Positions 2,349 to 11,977 are shown, counted from the stretch's first letter. The stretch: 64,000 nt of DNA from Prevotellaceae bacterium UBA2448 (GCA_002342585.1 DDQG01000007.1:11120-75119); one strand, 5' to 3'. Numbers and translations: made by a program. The notes: a model not told the origin generated them from the sequence alone.

Positions 2349-2449
2349 CAACAGTTTTGAAAGCCCTAACATTCAATTACCGATCAAAAAAATAGCATAA
2401 ATAAATGTATAGAAAATCAATTATTATCAAACACATAAACTTATTACAC

Positions 2450-4951
2450 ATGAAGAAATTATTTTTATTCGGAACACTTGCAGTATTTATGGCTGCATGT
2501 TCAAGCAATGATGATCTTCAGGGCAACGAGTCCTATCAGCCAAATCTGACATCTTCATCTGACTATGCATTCGTAAAGGGTGATAGCCGTATTGTCATTG
2601 GCGGTGGTGAAACAAAAAGCACTCGTGGTGCTTGGGTAACAACTCCTCAGCCAGAGATTCCTGCTGATGCTAAGAAACTCGAAGTTGGTAGTTGGGGAGG
2701 TTTCTATGTTTACGAAGGTAACGAATGGTGGAACAACGGCGGTACACTTGACGCAAATGTAACTGAATACTACGTTCCTGCAGGTGAATCTGTTCATGCT
2801 ACCAATGCACAGTTTAACACTCTTTCAAGCCTTACTCTTTATGTAGCCGGAGACTTGATTATTGACTACTTCGACAACTATCCATCTAAAGTAACTATCA
2901 ACATTCTCAACGGTGGTTCATTCAACACCAACCTCAGCAATGGTGGAACTGTCTCAAATGATATCACAAAGTGGGAAACTGGTATGTTCCAGATTCCTGC
3001 AGGTTGGACAATCAACGTTTGGGGTAAGTTCGACACAGGTTACTATCCAAACATCTCTGTAACTCCAGGTGCTACATTGAATTACTTCGAAGGAGCAGAA
3101 GATGTTGTATTCGGTACTGAGCAAACCGAAAACTACGAGCTCTGGAAAAACGATGCAAACCCTGTACTTTCTGTATCTGGCACATTCTACTCAGAAGTTC
3201 CTGTTCGCGTTAAGGGTAATGCTAACTTTACTGGCGGTACTTCTACATTCTATGCAGGTGTTCACATCGACAAGAATGTTACCGTCAAAAATGACCCAAG
3301 TGTTCCAGTAGTTAACATCTATGAGTGTTCTTACATTGATGGTCAGTTCTCAATGACTTCAAATTCAGAGAAAGCAACATTCAACATTTATGACTATCTG
3401 TATTGCGGTTCTATGCATTGCAACAGTGCAGCAGTATATATCAACCTGTACGATGCACTTCTCGATGTTGACAATAACTTCTCAACTGTATCAAACGACT
3501 TCTACAAGAACAACCTCCTTGTTGACAAAGGCGCTGGCATCCAAATTAAGGGTGACACTGAAGGTACTTACGCAAGCATAGTACGTTTCCTCAACAACGA
3601 CCTGCACATTGACAAGGGCAACAACTATGATGTAGTAGAGGGAACAGGAGTTCCAACATCATTCTACGTGGAAAACACATTCTCTGGTAACCTCGTAGTT
3701 CTTTCTAAGAAAGTAACCATCGAATATCCAAAGATTGCAGGTCAGGATGATGCTACAGAAGTTATTACTTTCAAGGATGGCAATGTAGCTCTCAACGCAG
3801 AAAACGCATACCTCCCAGGTAAGGGTGAATGCCGTCCACAGATTGGTGAGGTTCCAGTAACTGTTATTCCTCCAGTGCACAAGTATTCTGCAACAGCTCT
3901 CGATTTCGGTCCTAACGGAGAACTCTACCTCTGCTGGCACTCAAATATCGGTAACGGAGAAGGTGGAAATGGTACAAACATGTACGTAACTAACGAAGAT
4001 GGTTCAAGTGTTTCTGTTGACGGAATCAATGACTGGGGTGGTATCATCGACGTTATCAACACTAACAACTATGGTGATCCTCAGACTTACCTCTTCGATC
4101 AGACTCTCATTCAGAATGAGCACAAGTACAACCACGTAGTTTACTACAGCGGAAAACTTTACCTCGCTGGTACAAGCAACAAGGTAGGTGCAGCTCTTCA
4201 CGAGATCGAACTGAACGCAGACGGAACTATCAACGAATCTGAATTCGCTGAAAAGAATATCCGTGTTAACCTGACTGGTTCTTCTGCAAATAGCAGCATT
4301 ATCAACAATGGCGAAATCATCACAATCTCAGGTTTCAACAATGGTGGTATCAACAAGTTTGCTCTAGACGATTACAGCAATCAGGAACAGAAGTCTATCT
4401 ATAGCAGTACTGAATATACCGGTAAATACCTCTACAACGACGGTACATATATCATCGGTCTTAACGATGTGAACAATGGTACTGTTACACTCTACGACCA
4501 GAACATGAACTATGTTAAGTCGTTCAACGTAGGTTCTCTCTTCCCAACTGACGGTAAGAACGTAGTTGTAGGTGATGGTTCTAAGATTTACGTTTGCCGT
4601 GGCAACAATGGTTTCGAAGTATATGACTACAATGGACAGCGCGTAGGTGGTTCTAAGAAGTCTGCTAACGGTGTAGATGTTGACGACAAGTACATCTATG
4701 TAGCAACAGGTCTTGGTCTTGTTGTTCTCGACAAGAATGAAACTTACACTGACGGTGAGGTTACATACAATAAGACTGTTAAGCGTTTCACATACACAGG
4801 TACAGGTAACTCCCGTTACAACGGCATCATCACAACAGATGCTTCTAAGCAGTCAGCTAACTTCGTTAAGGTTCGCAACGGAAAGGCATACGTAGCATAC
4901 GGTATGTATGGTCTGCAGATCTACGACGTTTCTAACCTCGCAAACAATTAA
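2450..4951 (+). CDS. large surface lipoprotein with a beta-rich N-terminal half and a C-terminal LVIVD-type beta-propeller
   Basis: ORF 2405-4951 trimmed to Met16, giving MKKLFLFGTLAVFMAACSSND (lipobox). The C-terminal half has LVIVD-like blades (GLGLVVLD, YGLQIYDVS, KIYVCRGNNGFEVYD). Confidence 0.6.
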   Translation: MKKLFLFGTLAVFMAACSSNDDLQGNESYQPNLTSSSDYAFVKGDSRIVIGGGETKSTRGAWVTTPQPEIPADAKKLEVGSWGGFYVYEGNEWWNNGGTLDANVTEYYVPAGESVHATNAQFNTLSSLTLYVAGDLIIDYFDNYPSKVTINILNGGSFNTNLSNGGTVSNDITKWETGMFQIPAGWTINVWGKFDTGYYPNISVTPGATLNYFEGAEDVVFGTEQTENYELWKNDANPVLSVSGTFYSEVPVRVKGNANFTGGTSTFYAGVHIDKNVTVKNDPSVPVVNIYECSYIDGQFSMTSNSEKATFNIYDYLYCGSMHCNSAAVYINLYDALLDVDNNFSTVSNDFYKNNLLVDKGAGIQIKGDTEGTYASIVRFLNNDLHIDKGNNYDVVEGTGVPTSFYVENTFSGNLVVLSKKVTIEYPKIAGQDDATEVITFKDGNVALNAENAYLPGKGECRPQIGEVPVTVIPPVHKYSATALDFGPNGELYLCWHSNIGNGEGGNGTNMYVTNEDGSSVSVDGINDWGGIIDVINTNNYGDPQTYLFDQTLIQNEHKYNHVVYYSGKLYLAGTSNKVGAALHEIELNADGTINESEFAEKNIRVNLTGSSANSSIINNGEIITISGFNNGGINKFALDDYSNQEQKSIYSSTEYTGKYLYNDGTYIIGLNDVNNGTVTLYDQNMNYVKSFNVGSLFPTDGKNVVVGDGSKIYVCRGNNGFEVYDYNGQRVGGSKKSANGVDVDDKYIYVATGLGLVVLDKNETYTDGEVTYNKTVKRFTYTGTGNSRYNGIITTDASKQSANFVKVRNGKAYVAYGMYGLQIYDVSNLANN

Positions 4952-5019: not shown

Positions 5020-6411
5020 TTGGATACTTTAGAAAAATATATCGCATTAACTTTCACACTCTTTTTCCTCCTTACATTTGGAGCCTTCGCGAAGACTGAC
5101 ACAATAAATGTGCCAGTCAAAATGCTTGTATATGAGAATCTGAAAAACGAGGATGTTTTGAAACAGTTTGAGAAGCGTTTCGAGGAGATGGACAAATTGT
5201 TACGAAACAAGATAAGAGTGGAGGGACCAAACCTCACATTTGGTGATGACGCACTGACTCCGAACACAACGATTGACTCGCTTTACAAAGCAAAAGAAAT
5301 TTGGGAGACCAAATCGTTTAAGCGAAGAACAGGACTGGAAATAACAGGACAAGCATATGGTCGCTTAGACAAAGCTACACAAATCTCTCACGACGACGAC
5401 GACCCTTACTCCTCCTATTTTGCAAAGTTTAATGCAGAATTAGGATGGAACTTCTTTAATAGTGCATTCTATCAAAGGAAAGCAGGGCTTGCTAAGATAA
5501 AATATGCTAATGAGTTAGAGCATATCAAAACAAGCAAAGACAAGAACAAGGCAATATATGAAGCAGCAGAAAATCTGCTTACAATGGAATACAACTATTA
5601 TATAGCTATTGTGCTATATCACGAACTGCAGAATATTGACATTCTGAATCAGGCATATCAATATATGCTTGAACAAGATAAGGTAAGCAATGAAGACTTG
5701 CTTGACAATATAAATAATAAGATGCAGCTCGAATACGAACTTGCACAGACCTACGATTTAAAGGACATAGAGAATGAACCTCTTTACGTTCTGAATCCAT
5801 CTATAGTTACTATTGATTCTGTCAGGCTTTTTGAAGAAATCGAAAAATATAATCCTGATTTAAGAGCAAGCTACGTAGAAGAACAACTACTCGATACAGA
5901 ACGCAAACTCACGAATTACGGCCACAACATGAGACTAACACCGTTTTTTCGTGCGTCAACGTATTTGCGTCGCAACTTATCACCATCTACAAATCTTGAC
6001 TTAGGTGTAAGATTCACATTTCCATTATATGACGAATCAGCGCCCAAACGCAGAGCTATTGAAACTCAAAAGTGGATTTTAGTTGAAAACAGGGATAAGT
6101 TAAGCGAACAGATGAAATCGTTTTGCAGTTTAATGCTTGACCGTGTAGAACGACTAAACAGAGCCATCAAGACAGAAGCATACCATATTGAACAACTTGG
6201 AAAATACATAGATATTCGTAAAAACGCATATCTCAAACAACCTAAAGGATACAACTTTATTCTCCGACTAGAAGAATACAATGAATACCTCAAGAGTATG
6301 GAACGTATGTACAAGTTGATGCTCAACCGCACACTCACACTTTTGGAAATACAAAAGACTACGAATTTCAACAATTTACAATCTCTTATTATTGAAACGC
6401 CTGTCAAATGA
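5020..6411 (+). CDS. TolC-like outer-membrane efflux/duct protein
   Basis: 463 aa with a TTG start, which is needed to include the signal peptide ALTFTLFFLLTFGAFA|KTD. It has two helix-rich repeats, each ending in beta-strand motifs (AELGWNFFNSAFY; LGVRFTFPLYDES) like the TolC/OEP family. The stop overlaps the next start (ATGA). Confidence 0.6.
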   Translation: MDTLEKYIALTFTLFFLLTFGAFAKTDTINVPVKMLVYENLKNEDVLKQFEKRFEEMDKLLRNKIRVEGPNLTFGDDALTPNTTIDSLYKAKEIWETKSFKRRTGLEITGQAYGRLDKATQISHDDDDPYSSYFAKFNAELGWNFFNSAFYQRKAGLAKIKYANELEHIKTSKDKNKAIYEAAENLLTMEYNYYIAIVLYHELQNIDILNQAYQYMLEQDKVSNEDLLDNINNKMQLEYELAQTYDLKDIENEPLYVLNPSIVTIDSVRLFEEIEKYNPDLRASYVEEQLLDTERKLTNYGHNMRLTPFFRASTYLRRNLSPSTNLDLGVRFTFPLYDESAPKRRAIETQKWILVENRDKLSEQMKSFCSLMLDRVERLNRAIKTEAYHIEQLGKYIDIRKNAYLKQPKGYNFILRLEEYNEYLKSMERMYKLMLNRTLTLLEIQKTTNFNNLQSLIIETPVK

Positions 6412-7637
6412 ACAACTTCAGTTATAATTCACAACCACAGGAACAAGATATAAATGACCTTCTGAATTATCAGAATAAGAAACTTGCCAAGCAACAGAAT
6501 GTTTACGCAATAGTATTCACTATTATTTTGATTCTGTTGTTAATATTCGCATATAGACGAGTTTTCTACACATATTATGATGGATATGTCAATTTGGAGC
6601 AAAATAACTTACGTGCTATTGACGACTTATATATTCTAGACATATATAAAAACGTTGGAGATGTAGTACAACCAGGTGATACTTTATACTCATATATCCT
6701 TTTGGAAAACCTGCTTGGACAATTCAATGTTAATACTGTTCCATCAATTATACTTGACCACGCAAACATGAAGCTTCGCGCTGCTTTAGCAAAGCAAGAA
6801 TTGCCTGTTATCCAAACCAAGATTAACGAAATACAGAAGCAATTGAAAAGCGAACAGAACGACATTTTTTATGGTCTTACAGATAACACTAAGCGTATGG
6901 CATTAGAAGCTGAACTGAACGAATACAGAGAAAAGTTATCGGAATTACGCAACAAGATACAAATCTATGAGAGCATGGCAGGTAACTCATCACGTTACAT
7001 CGTAAATTCTGGTTATGGACACAATCGCCTACCATATTCTCCAGGAAGTTTATATTACGAAAATGGTGTGATTCAATATTGTTGTGCACCAGAAGAAGCC
7101 ATTGTAACAGATATTAAAGTAGCCAAAAACACAGTTGTCTTCGAAAAGGAAAACATTATTGACCTTCAGCATACAGACTACAAAGGTTCTCACATCGGAG
7201 TAATGGCATACATTCCTGCACATCAAGTAAAATATATTAACAACCAGAAACAAGTCGATGTAATTGTCAATGATGACATAATCCTTCATGCTCATATGTC
7301 ATTACTAGGACTACGTGTAGAAGACATTCCTAAGCACTTACTCAGTAACTTTAGTCATGACATTGACGCTGTTATAGCTTATTTCCTCTTCGACAAGGAC
7401 CAATACGTACCATTTTGGGTACTCAACAATCACTTACCAGTACGAGTACGTGTTCGCAACGATGTATTCCACGAGGCATTCTATAACTCCTTTGGCGGTA
7501 TTTTCAATGGACTTTTCTCAGAACCCGACTCTTTGAAATATAGCCCACGCCGTATATTTGAGATAAAGGAAGATCAGAAATTCGTCCCTGTTGACACAAC
7601 AACATTCCGTGAACTTACTAAAGACCACAATTTCTAA
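6408..7637 (+). CDS. HlyD-family periplasmic adaptor (membrane fusion protein)
   Basis: 409 aa with a single N-terminal TM helix (VYAIVFTIILILLLIFAY). It has a lipoyl-like motif (GDVVQPGDTLYSY), a long coiled coil (KQELPVIQTKINEIQKQLKSEQ...ELNEYREKLSELRNKIQIYE), and a C-terminal beta domain. Confidence 0.7.
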   Translation: MNNFSYNSQPQEQDINDLLNYQNKKLAKQQNVYAIVFTIILILLLIFAYRRVFYTYYDGYVNLEQNNLRAIDDLYILDIYKNVGDVVQPGDTLYSYILLENLLGQFNVNTVPSIILDHANMKLRAALAKQELPVIQTKINEIQKQLKSEQNDIFYGLTDNTKRMALEAELNEYREKLSELRNKIQIYESMAGNSSRYIVNSGYGHNRLPYSPGSLYYENGVIQYCCAPEEAIVTDIKVAKNTVVFEKENIIDLQHTDYKGSHIGVMAYIPAHQVKYINNQKQVDVIVNDDIILHAHMSLLGLRVEDIPKHLLSNFSHDIDAVIAYFLFDKDQYVPFWVLNNHLPVRVRVRNDVFHEAFYNSFGGIFNGLFSEPDSLKYSPRRIFEIKEDQKFVPVDTTTFRELTKDHNF

Positions 7638-7639
7638 TC

Positions 7640-9271
7640 ATGATAACAATACAAAATAACAATAACGAACGTCGAATACTGCTATTGGACAGTCAGTTTA
7701 ATCTTGAAGAATCACCTGACTTTCCAGAATACCTGTTTGATGCAATTTTTATATACAACGATTCTGTAGAACAGACTCAAAATATACTAAATGACATCAA
7801 CCCTATAACATCACAAAAATGTTGTTACAAACCTCTTTTCGTAGCACGTTCATTAGAAGGAAAAATGGGAGACTACGCCTCAGTCATTGACGGATACATC
7901 GATGACTGGAACGACAAGGACGCTTTGAATAAAGTCGAGGATATCATCAACAGGCGAAACGAACTGGGACTAAACGCCCCAGAGGAGAAGATTCTCTCAT
8001 CCAACCAGTTGTTCGTACGTCTGACGCGTTTCCTCATCATACGCAACAACCTGATAATGCATCCGGTATTGGAGAACGGCTCTTCTTCAGGATACGTCAT
8101 ACCGATATATAATCTGTTCTATAAACTGGGATGGTACAAATTGAGCGAGAGTTTCGTCTTCGTACAGTCTATGATTGAAAAGGGATATTTCCGCACGACC
8201 CAATTCCTCAACCGTATTTACCTGTGTCCCAAATGCCAGCATTCTCACCTTCTCTATATAGAGAGTTGTCCGAAGTGCAACAATTCGATGATTCACAGCG
8301 AAGAGGTTATCCACCACTTCCGCTGCGCCAACATCACTCCGGAACATACTTACAACTTTGGCGGACAGCTCAGATGTCCAAAATGTCACCAGATGCTTCA
8401 CCACATAGGTGTGGACTACGACCGTCCTGCAACAGTATTCACATGCGATGTGTGCAACAACTCATTCCTGCAGGCAAAGATGCAGGCTCTGTGTTCTAAC
8501 TGCCAATCAGTGTCTGACGTAAAATCACTCGTTCCTATTAATGTTTACGTTTACGAGATTACGAAAGAGGGTATCTATGCAATCACATCTCTCAACATAG
8601 GCTTCTCTATTTACACTGAGTTCCATGACAACTTCCTTGAATTTAACCGGTTTGTCAATCGAATTCGCCTGTTGGCAGAACAGAAATTCTCAGGTCGGAT
8701 ACTCGGAGACGTACTTGTCGGTAAGATTTGGATTATCGACTCCACATCCGCAACGGTGAGAAACCGCGCCGAACTGCTTGCACAGGTATGCCAATACTTC
8801 CCTAATAACAAGGTGTCAGCAGCTAATAACATCACATACATCAATGCTATTGCTACAGACTATAAAGGCGATCAGGAACAGGCAGTACTCGACTTCCAGA
8901 TAATGCTATCGGAAGCCATCCGTGCCGCGGCATACGTACTGCGCCCCGGGGAAAAGATCTGTTACACATACATGAAACTGGAAGGAAACGGTTCAAATAT
9001 CGACGATTTCCTGAATGACCTCAACTTTGTGGCTACTAACCCTGACGACAGCGTTGACTACGATCCCAATGCCATCAATCCGAATGCAGATAGAAACGTG
9101 GATTCTCCATTGCTTAATGACGATGGAACAGTAGAAACAACACTAGAAGTAACCCCACAAACCGATGTTGCAGAGACACCTGAAAATACAGAAGATATTC
9201 AAGTACCCGAAAATACAAACCTCTTCACCAAGTTAAAAGACTCTATATGTCGTATATTTTCGATTCATTAG
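7640..9271 (+). CDS. cytoplasmic multi-zinc-ribbon protein of unknown function, possibly TackOD1-like
   Basis: 543 aa with no TM segment. Five CxxC pairs lie within about 95 aa: CPKC-x11-CPKC, CPKC, CDVC-x12-CSNC. An N-terminal module of about 120 aa is receiver-like but degenerate (RILLLDSQ...). The C-terminal tail is acidic and P/N/T-rich. The gene overlaps the GT2 gene by 25 nt. Confidence 0.5.
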   Translation: MITIQNNNNERRILLLDSQFNLEESPDFPEYLFDAIFIYNDSVEQTQNILNDINPITSQKCCYKPLFVARSLEGKMGDYASVIDGYIDDWNDKDALNKVEDIINRRNELGLNAPEEKILSSNQLFVRLTRFLIIRNNLIMHPVLENGSSSGYVIPIYNLFYKLGWYKLSESFVFVQSMIEKGYFRTTQFLNRIYLCPKCQHSHLLYIESCPKCNNSMIHSEEVIHHFRCANITPEHTYNFGGQLRCPKCHQMLHHIGVDYDRPATVFTCDVCNNSFLQAKMQALCSNCQSVSDVKSLVPINVYVYEITKEGIYAITSLNIGFSIYTEFHDNFLEFNRFVNRIRLLAEQKFSGRILGDVLVGKIWIIDSTSATVRNRAELLAQVCQYFPNNKVSAANNITYINAIATDYKGDQEQAVLDFQIMLSEAIRAAAYVLRPGEKICYTYMKLEGNGSNIDDFLNDLNFVATNPDDSVDYDPNAINPNADRNVDSPLLNDDGTVETTLEVTPQTDVAETPENTEDIQVPENTNLFTKLKDSICRIFSIH

Positions 9272-10563
9272 ATACATTTGTGACATGGTTCCAGCACCTG
9301 TCGATATCCAGTATAATCAATACATACTGGTTTATCTTCTTTATCGAAATACCTCGATACTATCTGCTTGAAATCATAATTGTATCGTATAATGTACTTA
9401 CATATAAACGTCAGGACAAAAAACGGTTCTATGCACATTATAGACTGCTTAAAGAAAATCCCCTCATAACCATACTCGTACCTGGAAAGAATGAAGGAAA
9501 AAACATTTACAAACTTGTAAAATCCCTTGCAGAACAGACCTACAAAAATTATGAAATCATAATTGTTGATGACGGGTCTGACGATTATACTCCACTAATC
9601 TGTTCTGACTTGGAAAAGCATGGTTATATAGACCTGTACCTGCGCTGTGGAGTACGTGGTGGAAAAGCTTCGGCAGCCAATTATGGCGCATATCATGCAA
9701 AAGGAAAATACATTGTACATCTCGATGCCGATTCGTCACTTGACCGCGATGCAATTGAAAACATACTTCTGCCCTTCTATCTTGACCCTAAAATCAAAGC
9801 CGTAGGAGGCACAGTAAAAGTGCGTAACTACAAGGATTCTATTTGTGCTTCAATGCAGGCAATAGAATATCTTAAAACTATCATGATAGGACGTAAGGTA
9901 ACCGATACTCTAGGAATCCTGCATATCATCTCAGGAGCTTTTGGCGCATTTGAAGTAGAAACTCTGAAGAAAATCGGATACTGGGACATCGGTCCAGGAC
10001 TTGACGGAGACATCACTCAGAAGATACGCAAAGCCGGTTGGAAGGTGGCACACACCTCAGAAGCAGTGTGTCTTACAAATGTGCCTGTTAAATGGAAGGT
10101 GCTTTTCAAGCAAAGACTCAGATGGTCCAAGTCGCTCGTGCGATTCAGAATACGTAAACATCGTGACATCCTTTATCCAAACCGCAACTGGTCACTGAGC
10201 AACTTCGTTTCTAACATGGAGAGTATCATTTATGACTGCGTTTTCAACTATATATGGTTATTCTATTTCATAGGACTTATTGCAAACTTCAGCAACCATA
10301 TATTTGAAGTCATGCTACTCGACTTCCTAATCCGATTATGCCTTGCATGCGTTGCATTCGCTGTGATAATGACAGTAACCGAACGCAGGCGAGAAGAGCT
10401 ATTCCTTATACGATTCTTGCCGTTGACGTCACTCTACACAGGATATTTCATGCGCATCGTACGTTTACTTGCACATACGAAAGAGCTTTTCTTCTTCTCT
10501 TCGTACAAAGACCCATGGAATCCTGAAAAAACATCAAGATATGCACAACTTGAACGAGCATAA
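9247..10563 (+). CDS. membrane-embedded processive family-2 glycosyltransferase (PgaC/IcaA/NodC/BcsA-like polysaccharide synthase)
   Basis: 438 aa with TM helices at both ends. Motifs: ILVPGKNEG..., DDGSDD, HLDADS (DxD), LDGDIT (TED-like) and QRLRW (QxxRW). Confidence 0.8.
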   Translation: MSYIFDSLDTFVTWFQHLSISSIINTYWFIFFIEIPRYYLLEIIIVSYNVLTYKRQDKKRFYAHYRLLKENPLITILVPGKNEGKNIYKLVKSLAEQTYKNYEIIIVDDGSDDYTPLICSDLEKHGYIDLYLRCGVRGGKASAANYGAYHAKGKYIVHLDADSSLDRDAIENILLPFYLDPKIKAVGGTVKVRNYKDSICASMQAIEYLKTIMIGRKVTDTLGILHIISGAFGAFEVETLKKIGYWDIGPGLDGDITQKIRKAGWKVAHTSEAVCLTNVPVKWKVLFKQRLRWSKSLVRFRIRKHRDILYPNRNWSLSNFVSNMESIIYDCVFNYIWLFYFIGLIANFSNHIFEVMLLDFLIRLCLACVAFAVIMTVTERRREELFLIRFLPLTSLYTGYFMRIVRLLAHTKELFFFSSYKDPWNPEKTSRYAQLERA

Positions 10564-10596
10564 AAACAATATATAATAACAAAAACATTAGCAATT

Positions 10597-11013
10597 ATGA
10601 ACGCACTTATCAATCCAGGTATTGATGTTGACAAGCTTACCGTCCTCGTAGTAGACGATGTGCCACTAAATGTGTTGCTCATCAAAAAAATGCTTTCTCA
10701 GTACACATTCCAACTGAAAACTGCCAACAGTGGACAAGCAGCGCTAGACATCATCGCACAATCAATGCCCGATCTTCTCCTTCTCGATCTTATGATGCCA
10801 GGCATCGATGGATTCGAGGTTATTCGTCGTCTTCGTGCCGATGAGAAGACAAAGAAGTTACCTATTATTATCCTCTCTGCCCTCAACTCAGAAGCAGACA
10901 TAGTAAAAGGATTTAAGCTGGGAGCTAACGATTTCATAAACAAGCCGATTATTATGGAAAAGTTAATCAGCAGTGTAACAACCCAAATTAATCTTGCAGC
11001 AGCAACAAAATAG
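10597..11013 (+). CDS. stand-alone CheY-like response regulator receiver
   Basis: 138 aa with VLVVDDVPLN, LLLLDLMMPGIDG (phospho-Asp context), ILSAL and NKP. There is no output domain. Confidence 0.85.
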   Translation: MNALINPGIDVDKLTVLVVDDVPLNVLLIKKMLSQYTFQLKTANSGQAALDIIAQSMPDLLLLDLMMPGIDGFEVIRRLRADEKTKKLPIIILSALNSEADIVKGFKLGANDFINKPIIMEKLISSVTTQINLAAATK

Positions 11014-11146: not shown

Positions 11147-11977
11147 ATGAAAAAAACACTCAATACAGTATTTCTGATAGCAGGTAGCGAGCCACTGGGA
11201 AGTGCTGGTATGCAAGCAGACATTAAAGCTATCACGGCATGTGGAGGATATGCTGCATGTGCCGTAACAAGCATTGTGGATGAAGATACGAGAAGGATAA
11301 AGAATATCTTTCATATGCCGACGGAACTGATTGTTTCGCAGGCAGAATCTTTTTTGGGCGACATAGAGACAGGATGTATAAAGACAGGCGTATTGCCAAG
11401 CGAGGAAATAATCAGAGGTGTAGCAGGTGTACTGCGCCGTTTCAAACAAATTCCACTCGTAGTAGATCCTGTAATAGTAAACTCACTTGGGGTACAACTC
11501 GTAACAGACAGTGCAATAGATGCATATAAAAACGAGCTCTTTCCTCTTGCCACACTCATAACCCCGAATTGGCGTGAAGCAGAAGTGCTGCTCGGACATA
11601 AATTGGGAGACATAGAAAAGGACATAAGAGAATTAGGACGTTGGGGATGTTCCGTAATCATTAAATCTATAGAAAGCGGCAAAGGATGGTTGAGCGACTA
11701 TCTCTACGACATCAGTACTGATAAAGTACGTGAGTTTAAAAAGCATCGCATCATCACTCGAAACGTAAACGGCACAGGTGATTCTTTCTCCTCAGCCATT
11801 GCGACATATATCGCTACAAAGTACAGTCTTGAAGAGGCTGTTGAAAAAGGAGAAGAATTCATCAGCAGAGCTATAAGTCTTGGAGCTGAATACGAATTCG
11901 GACATGGTTTCGGACCTGTTCATCCATGTTTTATGGAAGACAAAATCACCCATCAGAGAATTTACAACGAACAATAA
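11147..11977 (+). CDS. thiD: hydroxymethylpyrimidine/phosphomethylpyrimidine kinase
   Basis: 276 aa. VFLIAGSEPLGSAGMQADIKAITACGGYAACAVTSIV and the ...GTGDSFSSAIA... anion-hole motif are typical of ThiD in the ribokinase superfamily. Confidence 0.8.
   Translation: MKKTLNTVFLIAGSEPLGSAGMQADIKAITACGGYAACAVTSIVDEDTRRIKNIFHMPTELIVSQAESFLGDIETGCIKTGVLPSEEIIRGVAGVLRRFKQIPLVVDPVIVNSLGVQLVTDSAIDAYKNELFPLATLITPNWREAEVLLGHKLGDIEKDIRELGRWGCSVIIKSIESGKGWLSDYLYDISTDKVREFKKHRIITRNVNGTGDSFSSAIATYIATKYSLEEAVEKGEEFISRAISLGAEYEFGHGFGPVHPCFMEDKITHQRIYNEQ

Follow-up and report, generated by a model that had tools for sequence, protein, structure and literature searches.

We analyzed a 64,000-nucleotide (nt) stretch of DNA from Prevotellaceae bacterium UBA2448 (GCA_002342585.1 DDQG01000007.1:11120-75119), referred to below as the window, and focused on a plus-strand gene at positions 7640-9271. 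This gene lies between those for a membrane-fusion adaptor and a glycosyltransferase of family 2 (GT2), the polysaccharide synthase of the operon. An initial annotation had described its product as a 543-amino-acid (aa) protein; the listing of open reading frames (ORFs) agreed exactly in position, strand, and length. A structural model of the whole protein was built with AlphaFold2 from a 34-sequence alignment (mean predicted local distance difference test [pLDDT], 80), and a second model covers aa 1-310 (pLDDT, 90; predicted template-modeling score, 0.78). According to these models, the protein is composed of three folded domains. A novel N-terminal domain (N-domain) is followed by a TackOD1 domain, putatively with three zinc sites, and by a GGDEF-like domain (C-domain) that is catalytically dead and has no I-site, the site by which the degenerate GGDEF proteins BcsE and PelD bind cyclic di-GMP (c-di-GMP). 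The parts of the gene are as follows.

7640..9271, + strand: whole gene, encoding the N-domain/TackOD1/GGDEF-like protein of 543 aa (ATG ORF listing)
7640..7993, + strand: N-terminal acidic alpha/beta domain, aa 1-118, of no known family (models; no Pfam match)
7997..8560, + strand: TackOD1 domain, aa 120-307 (Pfam PF18551, model positions 5-188 of 188)
8225..8503, + strand: metal-ligand core of five CxxC pairs plus H226-x2-C229 (motif positions, invariance)
8561..9073, + strand: degenerate GGDEF-like (palm/cyclase-fold) domain, aa 308-478 (Foldseek, HHalign)
9074..9220, + strand: disordered acidic linker rich in Thr, Asn, and Pro, aa 479-527 (pLDDT 31-42, composition)
9221..9271, + strand: short terminal helix, aa 528-543, and stop codon (helix at 529-542 in the model)

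The TackOD1 resemblance noted in the initial annotation was borne out by the profile search. The segment of aa 120-307 matched Pfam PF18551 over the full length of the model with 157.5 bits (E=3.7e-46) against a cutoff of 32. A motif script located all of the Cys/His motifs that had been listed earlier, namely the five CxxC pairs (CPKC at aa 196-199, 210-213, and 246-249, CDVC at 269-272, and CSNC at 285-288; nt 8225-8503), HHFRC (225-229), and HQMLHH (250-255). As for the spacings given with them, CDVC-x12-CSNC was correct, but the first two CPKC motifs are 10 residues apart instead of 11. The same script placed RILLLDSQ at aa 12-19, the stretch beginning FHDNFLEF at 328-350, and KIWIIDSTS at 362-370. 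The conserved Cys residues are 196, 199, 210, 213, 229, 246, 249, 269, 272, 285, and 288, with H226 and C229 forming an HxxC motif. The eleven motif Cys together with H225, H226, and H255 were invariant in 34 homologs with identities down to 34%, and the same Cys/His set was invariant or at least 90% conserved over 139 distant representatives. Given the full-length TackOD1 match and this invariance, the Cys/His pattern is far above chance. TackOD1 is defined by 11 Cys residues arranged as five CxxC and one HxxC (Galperin et al. 2018, PMC5847659). Judged from its sequence, the window protein is a member of the TackOD1 family, in which every testable defining feature was found. A transposase or nuclease zinc finger, the alternative that had been named for the Cys pairs, was rejected: Zn_ribbon_IS1595 (E=0.69) and DZR (18 bits against 27) were both sub-threshold and lay beneath the TackOD1 match, and no other family was confidently matched in Pfam.

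The TackOD1 domain begins with a basic three-helix subdomain with short strands (aa 121-183), which is followed by a beta-rich, putatively tri-zinc module (aa 184-307). The twelve Cys/His ligands, spaced as three ribbon-like pairs, would be enough for three Zn sites, to which they can be putatively assigned. Beyond these ligands, R135, E208, H225, H255, D259, and D261 are invariant or nearly so, and two loops, IHHFxCA (224-230) and HIGxDYD(R/K)P (255-263), are invariant; these loops are the lowest-confidence modeled parts of the domain. A Foldseek search of the PDB with the model of aa 1-310 returned no structural relative of the TackOD1 domain.

The N-domain was modeled with pLDDT values of 89-95 and has a median isoelectric point (pI) of 4.6. 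In the 34 homologs, D34, Y63-K64-P65, and D84 are near-invariant and D18 is variable; P65 and D84 are also near-invariant in the distant representatives. Iterated profiles found the N-domain in 244 of 253 family "heads." The initial annotation had likened this region of about 120 aa to a degenerate receiver (REC) domain, a view for which no Pfam, fold, or profile support was obtained and which we rejected. Foldseek with the pLDDT-90 model of aa 1-310 found no CheY-like match in the PDB (best probability, 0.28), HHalign gave a probability of 0.7% when the N-domain profile was aligned with one built from 77 REC sequences, and profile iteration, carried through five rounds, did not bring in the true REC heads found in fused relatives. 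The N-domain lacks the receiver residue order, because its K-P pair precedes the last conserved Asp. A true REC does occupy the N-domain position in five distant representatives of ~485 aa; TackOD1 comes next in all five, and at least three also have the same C-domain after it. Both the N-domain and TackOD1 appear to be folds without a solved relative, as far as the models can be compared.

No match to aa 308-478 was detected in Pfam, NCBIfam, or PDB-sequence searches. The region was modeled with pLDDT values of 84-92, and the top Foldseek matches in the PDB were GGDEF domains, namely those of DgcB (probability 1.00, template-modeling score 0.45 on the target), SiaD (0.99), WspR (0.97), DosC, and DgcR, with Cas10 palm domains, class III cyclases, and PelD (rank 36) lower in the list. 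A profile of 214 sequences, broadened from the C-domain through five local iterations, aligned in HHalign with a GGDEF profile over 98 columns with a probability of 89.2% (P=2.2e-6); the narrow 34-sequence profile reached just 2%. The GGDEF reference set consisted of PleD and a Geobacter diguanylate cyclase from the PDB and of DosC, CdgI, DgcJ, DgcP, and DosP from Escherichia coli K-12. Thus, the faint GGDEF-like cadence without a GGDEF motif that had been perceived in the sequence was supported by fold and profile, and the motif G[GAS][DE]EF was present in 0 of 254 family tails. In the alignment with PleD, the active-site (A-site) GGEEF stands opposite (gap)-A-N-N-I, the I-site R359-x-x-D362 stands opposite P-N-N-K, and the substrate-binding FKxINDxxGH loop, which binds guanine, is deleted. 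The window protein has a single RxxD, which falls within the disordered tail and has a conservation of 6%, and no R..D column pair was conserved at 80% or more anywhere in the protein. Neither the window protein nor 10 distant members gave a Pfam GGDEF match, no HMMER match to PDB GGDEF chains was obtained, and a whole-family profile run against all PDB chains yielded just two low-complexity tail matches with E>3. Few residues of the C-domain are invariant across the superfamily. These results indicate, at the level of profiles and models, that the C-domain is a remote and doubly degenerate GGDEF-like domain, a case of remote homology and not of GGDEF family membership. Since the defining motifs fail, we did not classify it as a GGDEF family member or an I-site receptor.

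The genes around the TackOD1 gene, all on the plus strand, are as follows.

2405..4951, + strand: 848-aa lipoprotein with C-terminal LVIVD repeats (Pfam LVIVD, E=0.0011)
5020..6411, + strand: putative outer-membrane component, 463 aa, with a signal-peptide-like N-terminus (by position; tentative)
6408..7637, + strand: membrane-fusion (HlyD-like) adaptor, 409 aa (weak Pfam HlyD_3 match, E=0.016)
9247..10563, + strand: partner synthase, a 438-aa membrane-integrated processive GT2 of the HAS/NodC/PgaC type (Pfam, PDB sequences)
10597..11013, + strand: stand-alone receiver, 138 aa, with all phospho-acceptor residues (Pfam Response_reg, E=1.2e-29)

The GT2 matched Glycos_transf_2, Glyco_trans_2_3, and Chitin_synth_2 in Pfam and scored 169 bits, below the cutoff, on TIGR03937 (PgaC_IcaA). 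Hyaluronan synthases were the nearest PDB sequences to its catalytic and membrane core. The DD, D64, S/T, and K positions of the stand-alone REC were conserved in 72 of 72 orthologs, and its best NCBIfam match was the PleD family. Single-sequence PDB searches with the adaptor gave no match; the protein in the adaptor position of a distant cassette (L094) matched HlyD_3 with 38 bits, above the cutoff. The putative outer-membrane protein (OMP) had no Pfam or PDB match. In a cassette from Balneolaceae, the gene immediately before the HlyD-like one codes for a 707-aa protein that matched OEP/TolC with 21 bits. From these sequence matches we infer an exopolysaccharide (EPS) machine that would consist of a TolC-like OMP, a HlyD-like adaptor or membrane-fusion protein (MFP), and a processive GT2 of the HAS/PgaC type.

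The distribution of the TackOD1 protein was then considered. There are 331 close homologs, and a profile search of 1.84 billion representatives returned 2,142 clusters at 50% identity, 576 of them with E<1e-30. A scan of species-representative genomes gave at least 393 loci, all from Bacteroidales. Among the carriers are many isolates of Segatella copri, Bacteroides from the chicken gut, and metagenome-assembled genomes of Prevotellaceae and Bacteroidaceae from rumen and gut. Prevotellaceae bacterium UBA2744 and the window share 94% identity. When the window operon proteins were compared by BLAST with all ORFs in 80 of the 393 loci, these fell into 41 class A loci, 38 class B loci, and 1 truncated locus. 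Class A loci have the order OMP-like, MFP-like, TackOD1 protein, GT2, with OMP, MFP, and GT2 present in 41/41, a nucleotide-sugar dehydrogenase in 40/41, and a REC within 5 kb in 39/41, the last often followed by a histidine kinase gene. In class B, the protein is tail-less, ~485 aa long, and ~60% identical to the window protein, and a REC ~81% identical to the window REC is directly adjacent downstream in 38/38. Taken together, a stand-alone REC was adjacent or within 5 kb in 77/80 loci and, after the GT2, is the neighbor most constantly found; histidine kinase genes adjoin the REC gene in many cassettes.

The same gene order was observed far from the window. At 20-30% identity, the TackOD1 gene was directly upstream of a GT2 gene in 4/4 informative distant contexts, a count from which P0160 was left out because its contig is too short. 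The REC-fused P0224 gene overlaps a 435-aa GT2 gene by 8 nt. The gene for P0243, also REC-fused, follows OEP-like and HlyD-like genes and precedes a 396-aa GT2 gene; its contig is assigned to Balneolaceae because the phosphoenolpyruvate carboxykinase encoded on it is 85% identical to that of Fodinibius. P0125 is followed by a GT2 and a dehydrogenase, and P0182 abuts a 433-aa GT2 and follows a HlyD_3-positive gene (38 bits), with histidine kinase and response regulator genes flanking. In the reverse test, three GT2 orthologs were picked without regard to TackOD1, and a TackOD1 gene was immediately upstream in 3/3. Co-occurrence with GT2 genes, by which the initial annotation had proposed to judge its idea, was therefore found as adjacency in class A, distant, and GT2-first contexts alike, and the TackOD1 gene was present upstream of every orthologous GT2 examined.

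The 3' end of the window gene is unusual. As had been noted, the tail is acidic, rich in Pro, Asn, and Thr, and probably disordered; its composition is in agreement (Thr, Asn, Asp, Glu, and Pro predominate), as are the pLDDT values of 31-42, and the length and sequence of the linker vary between homologs. The earlier observation that there is no transmembrane segment was correct for the window protein (maximum 19-residue Kyte-Doolittle value, 1.24, versus ~3.0 in the transmembrane helices of homologs). This state is, however, atypical: most class A homologs carry a clear C-terminal transmembrane helix beyond the acidic linker and are thus membrane-anchored, and the helix is still encoded in close relatives of 74-79% identity. 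DNA alignment of window positions 9150-9271 with the corresponding stretches of L007 (~11560-11680) and L037 (~11560-11700) showed that ~100 nt present in L007 and L037 have been lost from the window, from L005 (UBA2744), and from L009 through a common deletion. The deletion took the transmembrane-coding segment and the intergenic spacer, joining the end of the ORF to the start of the GT2 gene, and the short helix of aa 528-543 is what is left at the place of the anchor. Because of this loss, the GT2 ATG (9247) and the stop of the window ORF (9271) now overlap by 25 nt. The overlap exists as described, in three independent assemblies; as an argument for stoichiometric co-production it had been over-read, being a by-product of a lineage-specific deletion. 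At the same junction in other lineages, overlaps of 1-16 nt or gaps of 12-120 nt are found.

In about 8 of the 34 homologs (680-726 aa; P0050, P0055, P0065, P0071, P0077, P0085, P0092, and P0120), a domain of ~75 aa that is SPOR-like by eye was observed past the transmembrane helix (alignment A1, columns ~700-783), with the pattern YYVV.G.F...NA...Y..G..Y.VSPF.S.D...C. If the assignment from this pattern is right, the domain would lie in the periplasm, where it could attach the machine to peptidoglycan.

Considering the gene context, we propose with moderate confidence that the TackOD1 protein is a cytoplasmic regulatory subunit that couples a two-component phosphorelay to the activity or assembly of the synthase in a synthase-dependent EPS machine. 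The initial annotation had suggested a subunit that regulates or activates the synthase and takes its input from the CheY-like neighbor; this idea is strongly supported by the gene order shared by Bacteroidales and Balneolaceae and also finds support in the REC-TackOD1 fusions followed by GT2. In the mechanism we envisage, the N-domain/TackOD1 module would be bound or repositioned by a phosphorylated REC, which acts in trans in the window and is part of the same chain in the fused forms, where it acts in cis. This input may alter the oligomeric state or orientation of the GGDEF-like domain, as in PleD and WspR, with the GGDEF-like domain serving as a dimerization or docking platform. From its place near the membrane, the complex would then touch the GT2 on the cytosolic side and permit or block polymerization and export. 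A structural role is envisaged for the three Zn(Cys/His)4 sites, and the invariant loops IHHFxCA and HIGxDYD(R/K)P are the likeliest surface for a partner or ligand. Such a role would be equivalent to that of the c-di-GMP receptors BcsE, PelD, and PgaD of Proteobacteria, with phosphorylation in place of c-di-GMP as the input.

A broader form of this proposal, which we hold to be possible but not probable, is that [N-domain or REC]-TackOD1-dead-GGDEF proteins constitute a new class of phosphorylation-driven, c-di-GMP-independent synthase-gating proteins, ancestral to Bacteroidota and Balneolota and related to the archaeal regulators of pilus loci, in which TackOD1 engages surface-polymer machines. 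If this were true, TackOD1 would be an unrecognized fold that contacts GT2 synthases in bacteria and type IV pili in archaea and would receive its first functional assignment, and a GGDEF domain would have been repurposed without A-site and I-site in clades largely lacking c-di-GMP signaling.

Several observations weigh against the regulatory-subunit proposal, for which predicted structure and gene context are the basis. No OMP, MFP, or GT2 gene was found within 10 kb in any of the 38 class B loci, and the protein is apparently able to work without an adjacent synthase, either in trans or on another target. Class B appears to have arisen from within the clade to which the window belongs, as its members are 60% identical to the window protein compared with 37% for S. 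copri class A. Its lack of a synthase implies that the protein is a signaling module first and a synthase-operon gene second. In addition, a few class A and distant cassettes (L055, L068, L092, L096, and L097) have no nearby REC. The small number of invariant C-domain residues fits a scaffold and offers no positive functional signature. Finally, the loss of the transmembrane anchor and of the dehydrogenase suggests that the window lineage is remodeling or eroding the system, with a possibly altered or decaying function.

That the protein is a constitutive scaffold, joining the GT2 to the adaptor (and to the cell wall in SPOR-bearing forms) without signal-dependent switching, is the first alternative to be weighed, and we regard it as unlikely. 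The fixed slot between the MFP and GT2 genes, the transmembrane anchors and periplasmic SPOR-like domains of homologs, the scarcity of invariant C-domain residues, and the cassettes without a REC would all fit such a scaffold. However, a canonical REC is linked in 39/41 class A and 38/38 class B loci and is fused to the protein elsewhere, class B retains the protein and its REC without secretion genes, for which a mere scaffold role gives no explanation, and the anchor is missing in the window copy and the class B copies.

We consider it quite unlikely that the protein is one half of a split response regulator, with DNA binding as its output, and governs how the operon, or in class B some other set of genes, is transcribed. 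The definition of TackOD1 is that of an output domain of response regulators, and forms in which a winged helix-turn-helix stands between REC and TackOD1 exist (PMC5847659). The order of secondary structure in aa 121-209 is winged-helix-like, the subdomain has a basic median pI of 9.1, a synthase is missing from the neighborhood of class B pairs, and very weak Foldseek matches to TFIIE, RTP, and Mcm10 were obtained. These matches (probability <0.05) are, however, not significant, and the putative recognition helix (LSESFVFVQSMIE) is acidic and hydrophobic, with flanking domains of pI ~4.6; in distant relatives the median pI of TackOD1 is 6.5. Moreover, most class A homologs are tail-anchored in the membrane, and the gene is located between those for the MFP and the GT2, often with overlapping codons, from Bacteroidales to Balneolaceae, which is unusual for a transcription factor.

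A receptor for a nucleotide second messenger (c-di-GMP or a related molecule) that activates the synthase in the manner of PelD, BcsE, and PssE is, in our judgment, distinctly improbable. A degenerate GGDEF-like domain encoded in a synthase-dependent EPS operon is the arrangement of PelD and BcsE, both of which bind c-di-GMP via a retained RxxD I-site (PMC7439463). PelD is among the C-domain fold matches, and the conserved His/Asp/Arg loops of TackOD1 could shape a non-canonical ligand pocket. In the window protein, however, P-N-N-K occupies the I-site positions, there is no conserved RxxD pair, and the guanine-binding loop is deleted. A local rather than genome-wide scan, covering the window and 84 related loci (~1.6 Mb), turned up no gene for a GGDEF domain. 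To our knowledge, Bacteroidales genomes contain few or no c-di-GMP enzymes.

It is very improbable that TackOD1 is a metal-dependent enzyme of a kind not yet described, with its invariant His/Asp/Glu/Arg cluster used for priming, modifying, or cleaving, for example, the polymer or a nucleotide: many response regulators have an enzyme as output, no relative of the fold has been solved, and H225, H255, D259, D261, E208, and R135 are (near-)invariant beyond the 12 zinc ligands, but no likeness to catalytic families was seen in Pfam, NCBIfam, or the PDB, the conserved loops, being the least confidently modeled, look more like an interaction surface than a pre-formed pocket, and a cytoplasmic location does not suit polymer modification, which is usually periplasmic.

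Further observations concern the rest of the cassette. Across the same genomes, GT2 proteins are 62-70% identical to that of the window and the TackOD1 partner proteins 37-50%, which makes the synthase by far the more conserved of the two. The GT2 cluster P0500 comprises 6,819 metagenomic member sequences, and on this count the system is very common in gut metagenomes. An LVIVD lipoprotein of ~850 aa with no other family match heads most class A cassettes (upstream regions of L053-L084) and occurs in two tandem copies in S. copri; it may, for example, bind or process polymer at the surface. The REC partner encoded in cassettes of Bacteroides and Phocaeicola has 338-339 aa and consists of a REC and ~200 aa without Pfam match (L003, 12901-13920; L095, 8555-9571), a further unannotated output domain of the pathway; a hybrid PAS-histidine kinase-REC gene comes next. 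The class B loci span the names L010-L052, and in L014 (9950-11950), the single class B locus that was annotated, the pair lies amid the housekeeping genes SufBCD, RibF, DUF3109, HisRS, and SufS.

The class A dehydrogenase is closest to the TviB-type UDP-N-acetylglucosamine (GlcNAc) C-6 dehydrogenase, below the equivalog cutoff. It is absent between the GT2 and REC genes in the window and L005, which alone among the class A loci lack it and have a gap of 33 nt there (10563-10597), compared with a gene at 12957-14255 in L006. Downstream of the dehydrogenase gene in L096 (8634-10547), a 637-aa protein is encoded that scored 24.7 bits, just above the cutoff, with Polysacc_deac_1; its sequence hints at a PgaB-like step and an N-acetylated polymer in that lineage. 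Together, the TviB-like dehydrogenase and the polysaccharide deacetylase in one cassette suggest an acetamido-sugar or uronic-acid polymer. A fragment of UDPG_MGDP_dh_C (E=1e-9) is fused N-terminally to the distant TackOD1 protein P0166 (669 aa); this could be a gene fusion or a gene-calling artifact and is consistent with a link to the dehydrogenase. Genes for tyrosine integrases or resolvases flank cassettes in L095 (264-1481), L096 (546-1754 and 11296-12519), L092 (4435-5076), and L090 (308-1543), and L096 also has an FtsK-like gene, which suggests that the whole OMP-MFP-TackOD1-GT2 cassette can travel on integrative elements.

Synthase-dependent EPS systems (cellulose, poly-N-acetylglucosamine, Pel, and alginate) are the standard examples of c-di-GMP control. 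The TackOD1 family would offer a testable answer to how c-di-GMP-poor clades such as gut Bacteroidales switch their EPS machines, namely through a subunit that reads a phosphorelay. The polymer controlled, probably rich in GlcNAc and GlcNAc-uronic acid, could matter for biofilm formation, host interaction, or phage defense in the rumen and the human gut. In our literature search, no paper was found that links TackOD1 to polysaccharide synthases, describes the flanking domains, or names the operon, and a search on zinc-ribbon plus degenerate-GGDEF regulators gave nothing relevant beyond PMC5847659. For TackOD1, which received its name in 2018, the present analysis gives a functional context for the first time, along with two more unannotated companion domains and a confidently predicted fold without a solved relative.

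With the TackOD1 family (PF18551), the window protein shares the full-length profile match, the 11-Cys pattern, and the association with receiver domains. The domain is known from TACK archaea as TackOD1, REC-TackOD1, and REC-wHTH-TackOD1 proteins encoded at type IV pilus loci, with a function called "obscure," and has been reported "in some bacteria" too (PMC5847659). In contrast to the archaeal forms, the window protein is bacterial, carries a conserved non-REC N-domain and a GGDEF-like C-domain on either side of TackOD1, and belongs to a polysaccharide synthase cassette. PleD and WspR resemble the REC-fused relatives in having a REC, an insert, and a GGDEF-like domain, and WspR is among the fold matches of the C-domain. 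However, both are active GG[DE]EF cyclases that make c-di-GMP, whereas the C-domain of the TackOD1 family is dead in 254/254 members and TackOD1 intervenes. The exporters in which a synthase, a HlyD-like adaptor, and a TolC-like channel act together (for example the cyanobacterial Xcs cellulose system and the rhizobial bgsBA mixed-linkage glucan system) have a similar layout, in which the adaptor and the channel take the place of parts of the BcsB/BcsC type. In these exporters, c-di-GMP binds the synthase itself, and they are not known to have a TackOD1 subunit. The text of PMC5567048 does not mention BgsB or HlyD, and we offer this tripartite comparison as a lead only.

The closest parallels are found in the c-di-GMP receptors. 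BcsE of the E. coli cellulose system, with its degenerate REC*-GGDEF* "GIL" module (PMC7439463), is likewise a cytosolic multidomain regulator from an EPS operon with a severely degenerate GGDEF domain. BcsE is recruited to the membrane through BcsF, whereas the TackOD1 protein would be recruited through its own transmembrane helix in most homologs. BcsE keeps the RxxD I-site, binds c-di-GMP, and has a middle domain of REC fold, whereas the TackOD1 protein has no I-site and its N-domain is not REC-like; the putatively tri-zinc TackOD1 domain has no counterpart in BcsE. No sequence relationship between the two was detectable when the N- and C-domain profiles were aligned by HHalign with the single BcsE sequence, a comparison in which the GGDEF- and REC-profile positive controls likewise gave no signal. 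PelD of the Pseudomonas Pel system, which combines a GAF domain with a degenerate GGDEF domain, is similar in being a membrane-anchored degenerate-GGDEF protein of a synthase-dependent system; its N-terminal anchor, its GAF domain, and its binding of c-di-GMP through the I-site do not apply to the TackOD1 protein. By analogy, the TackOD1 protein appears in its role to resemble BcsE and PelD most closely and to differ from them in its predicted input, its TackOD1 domain, and its N-domain.

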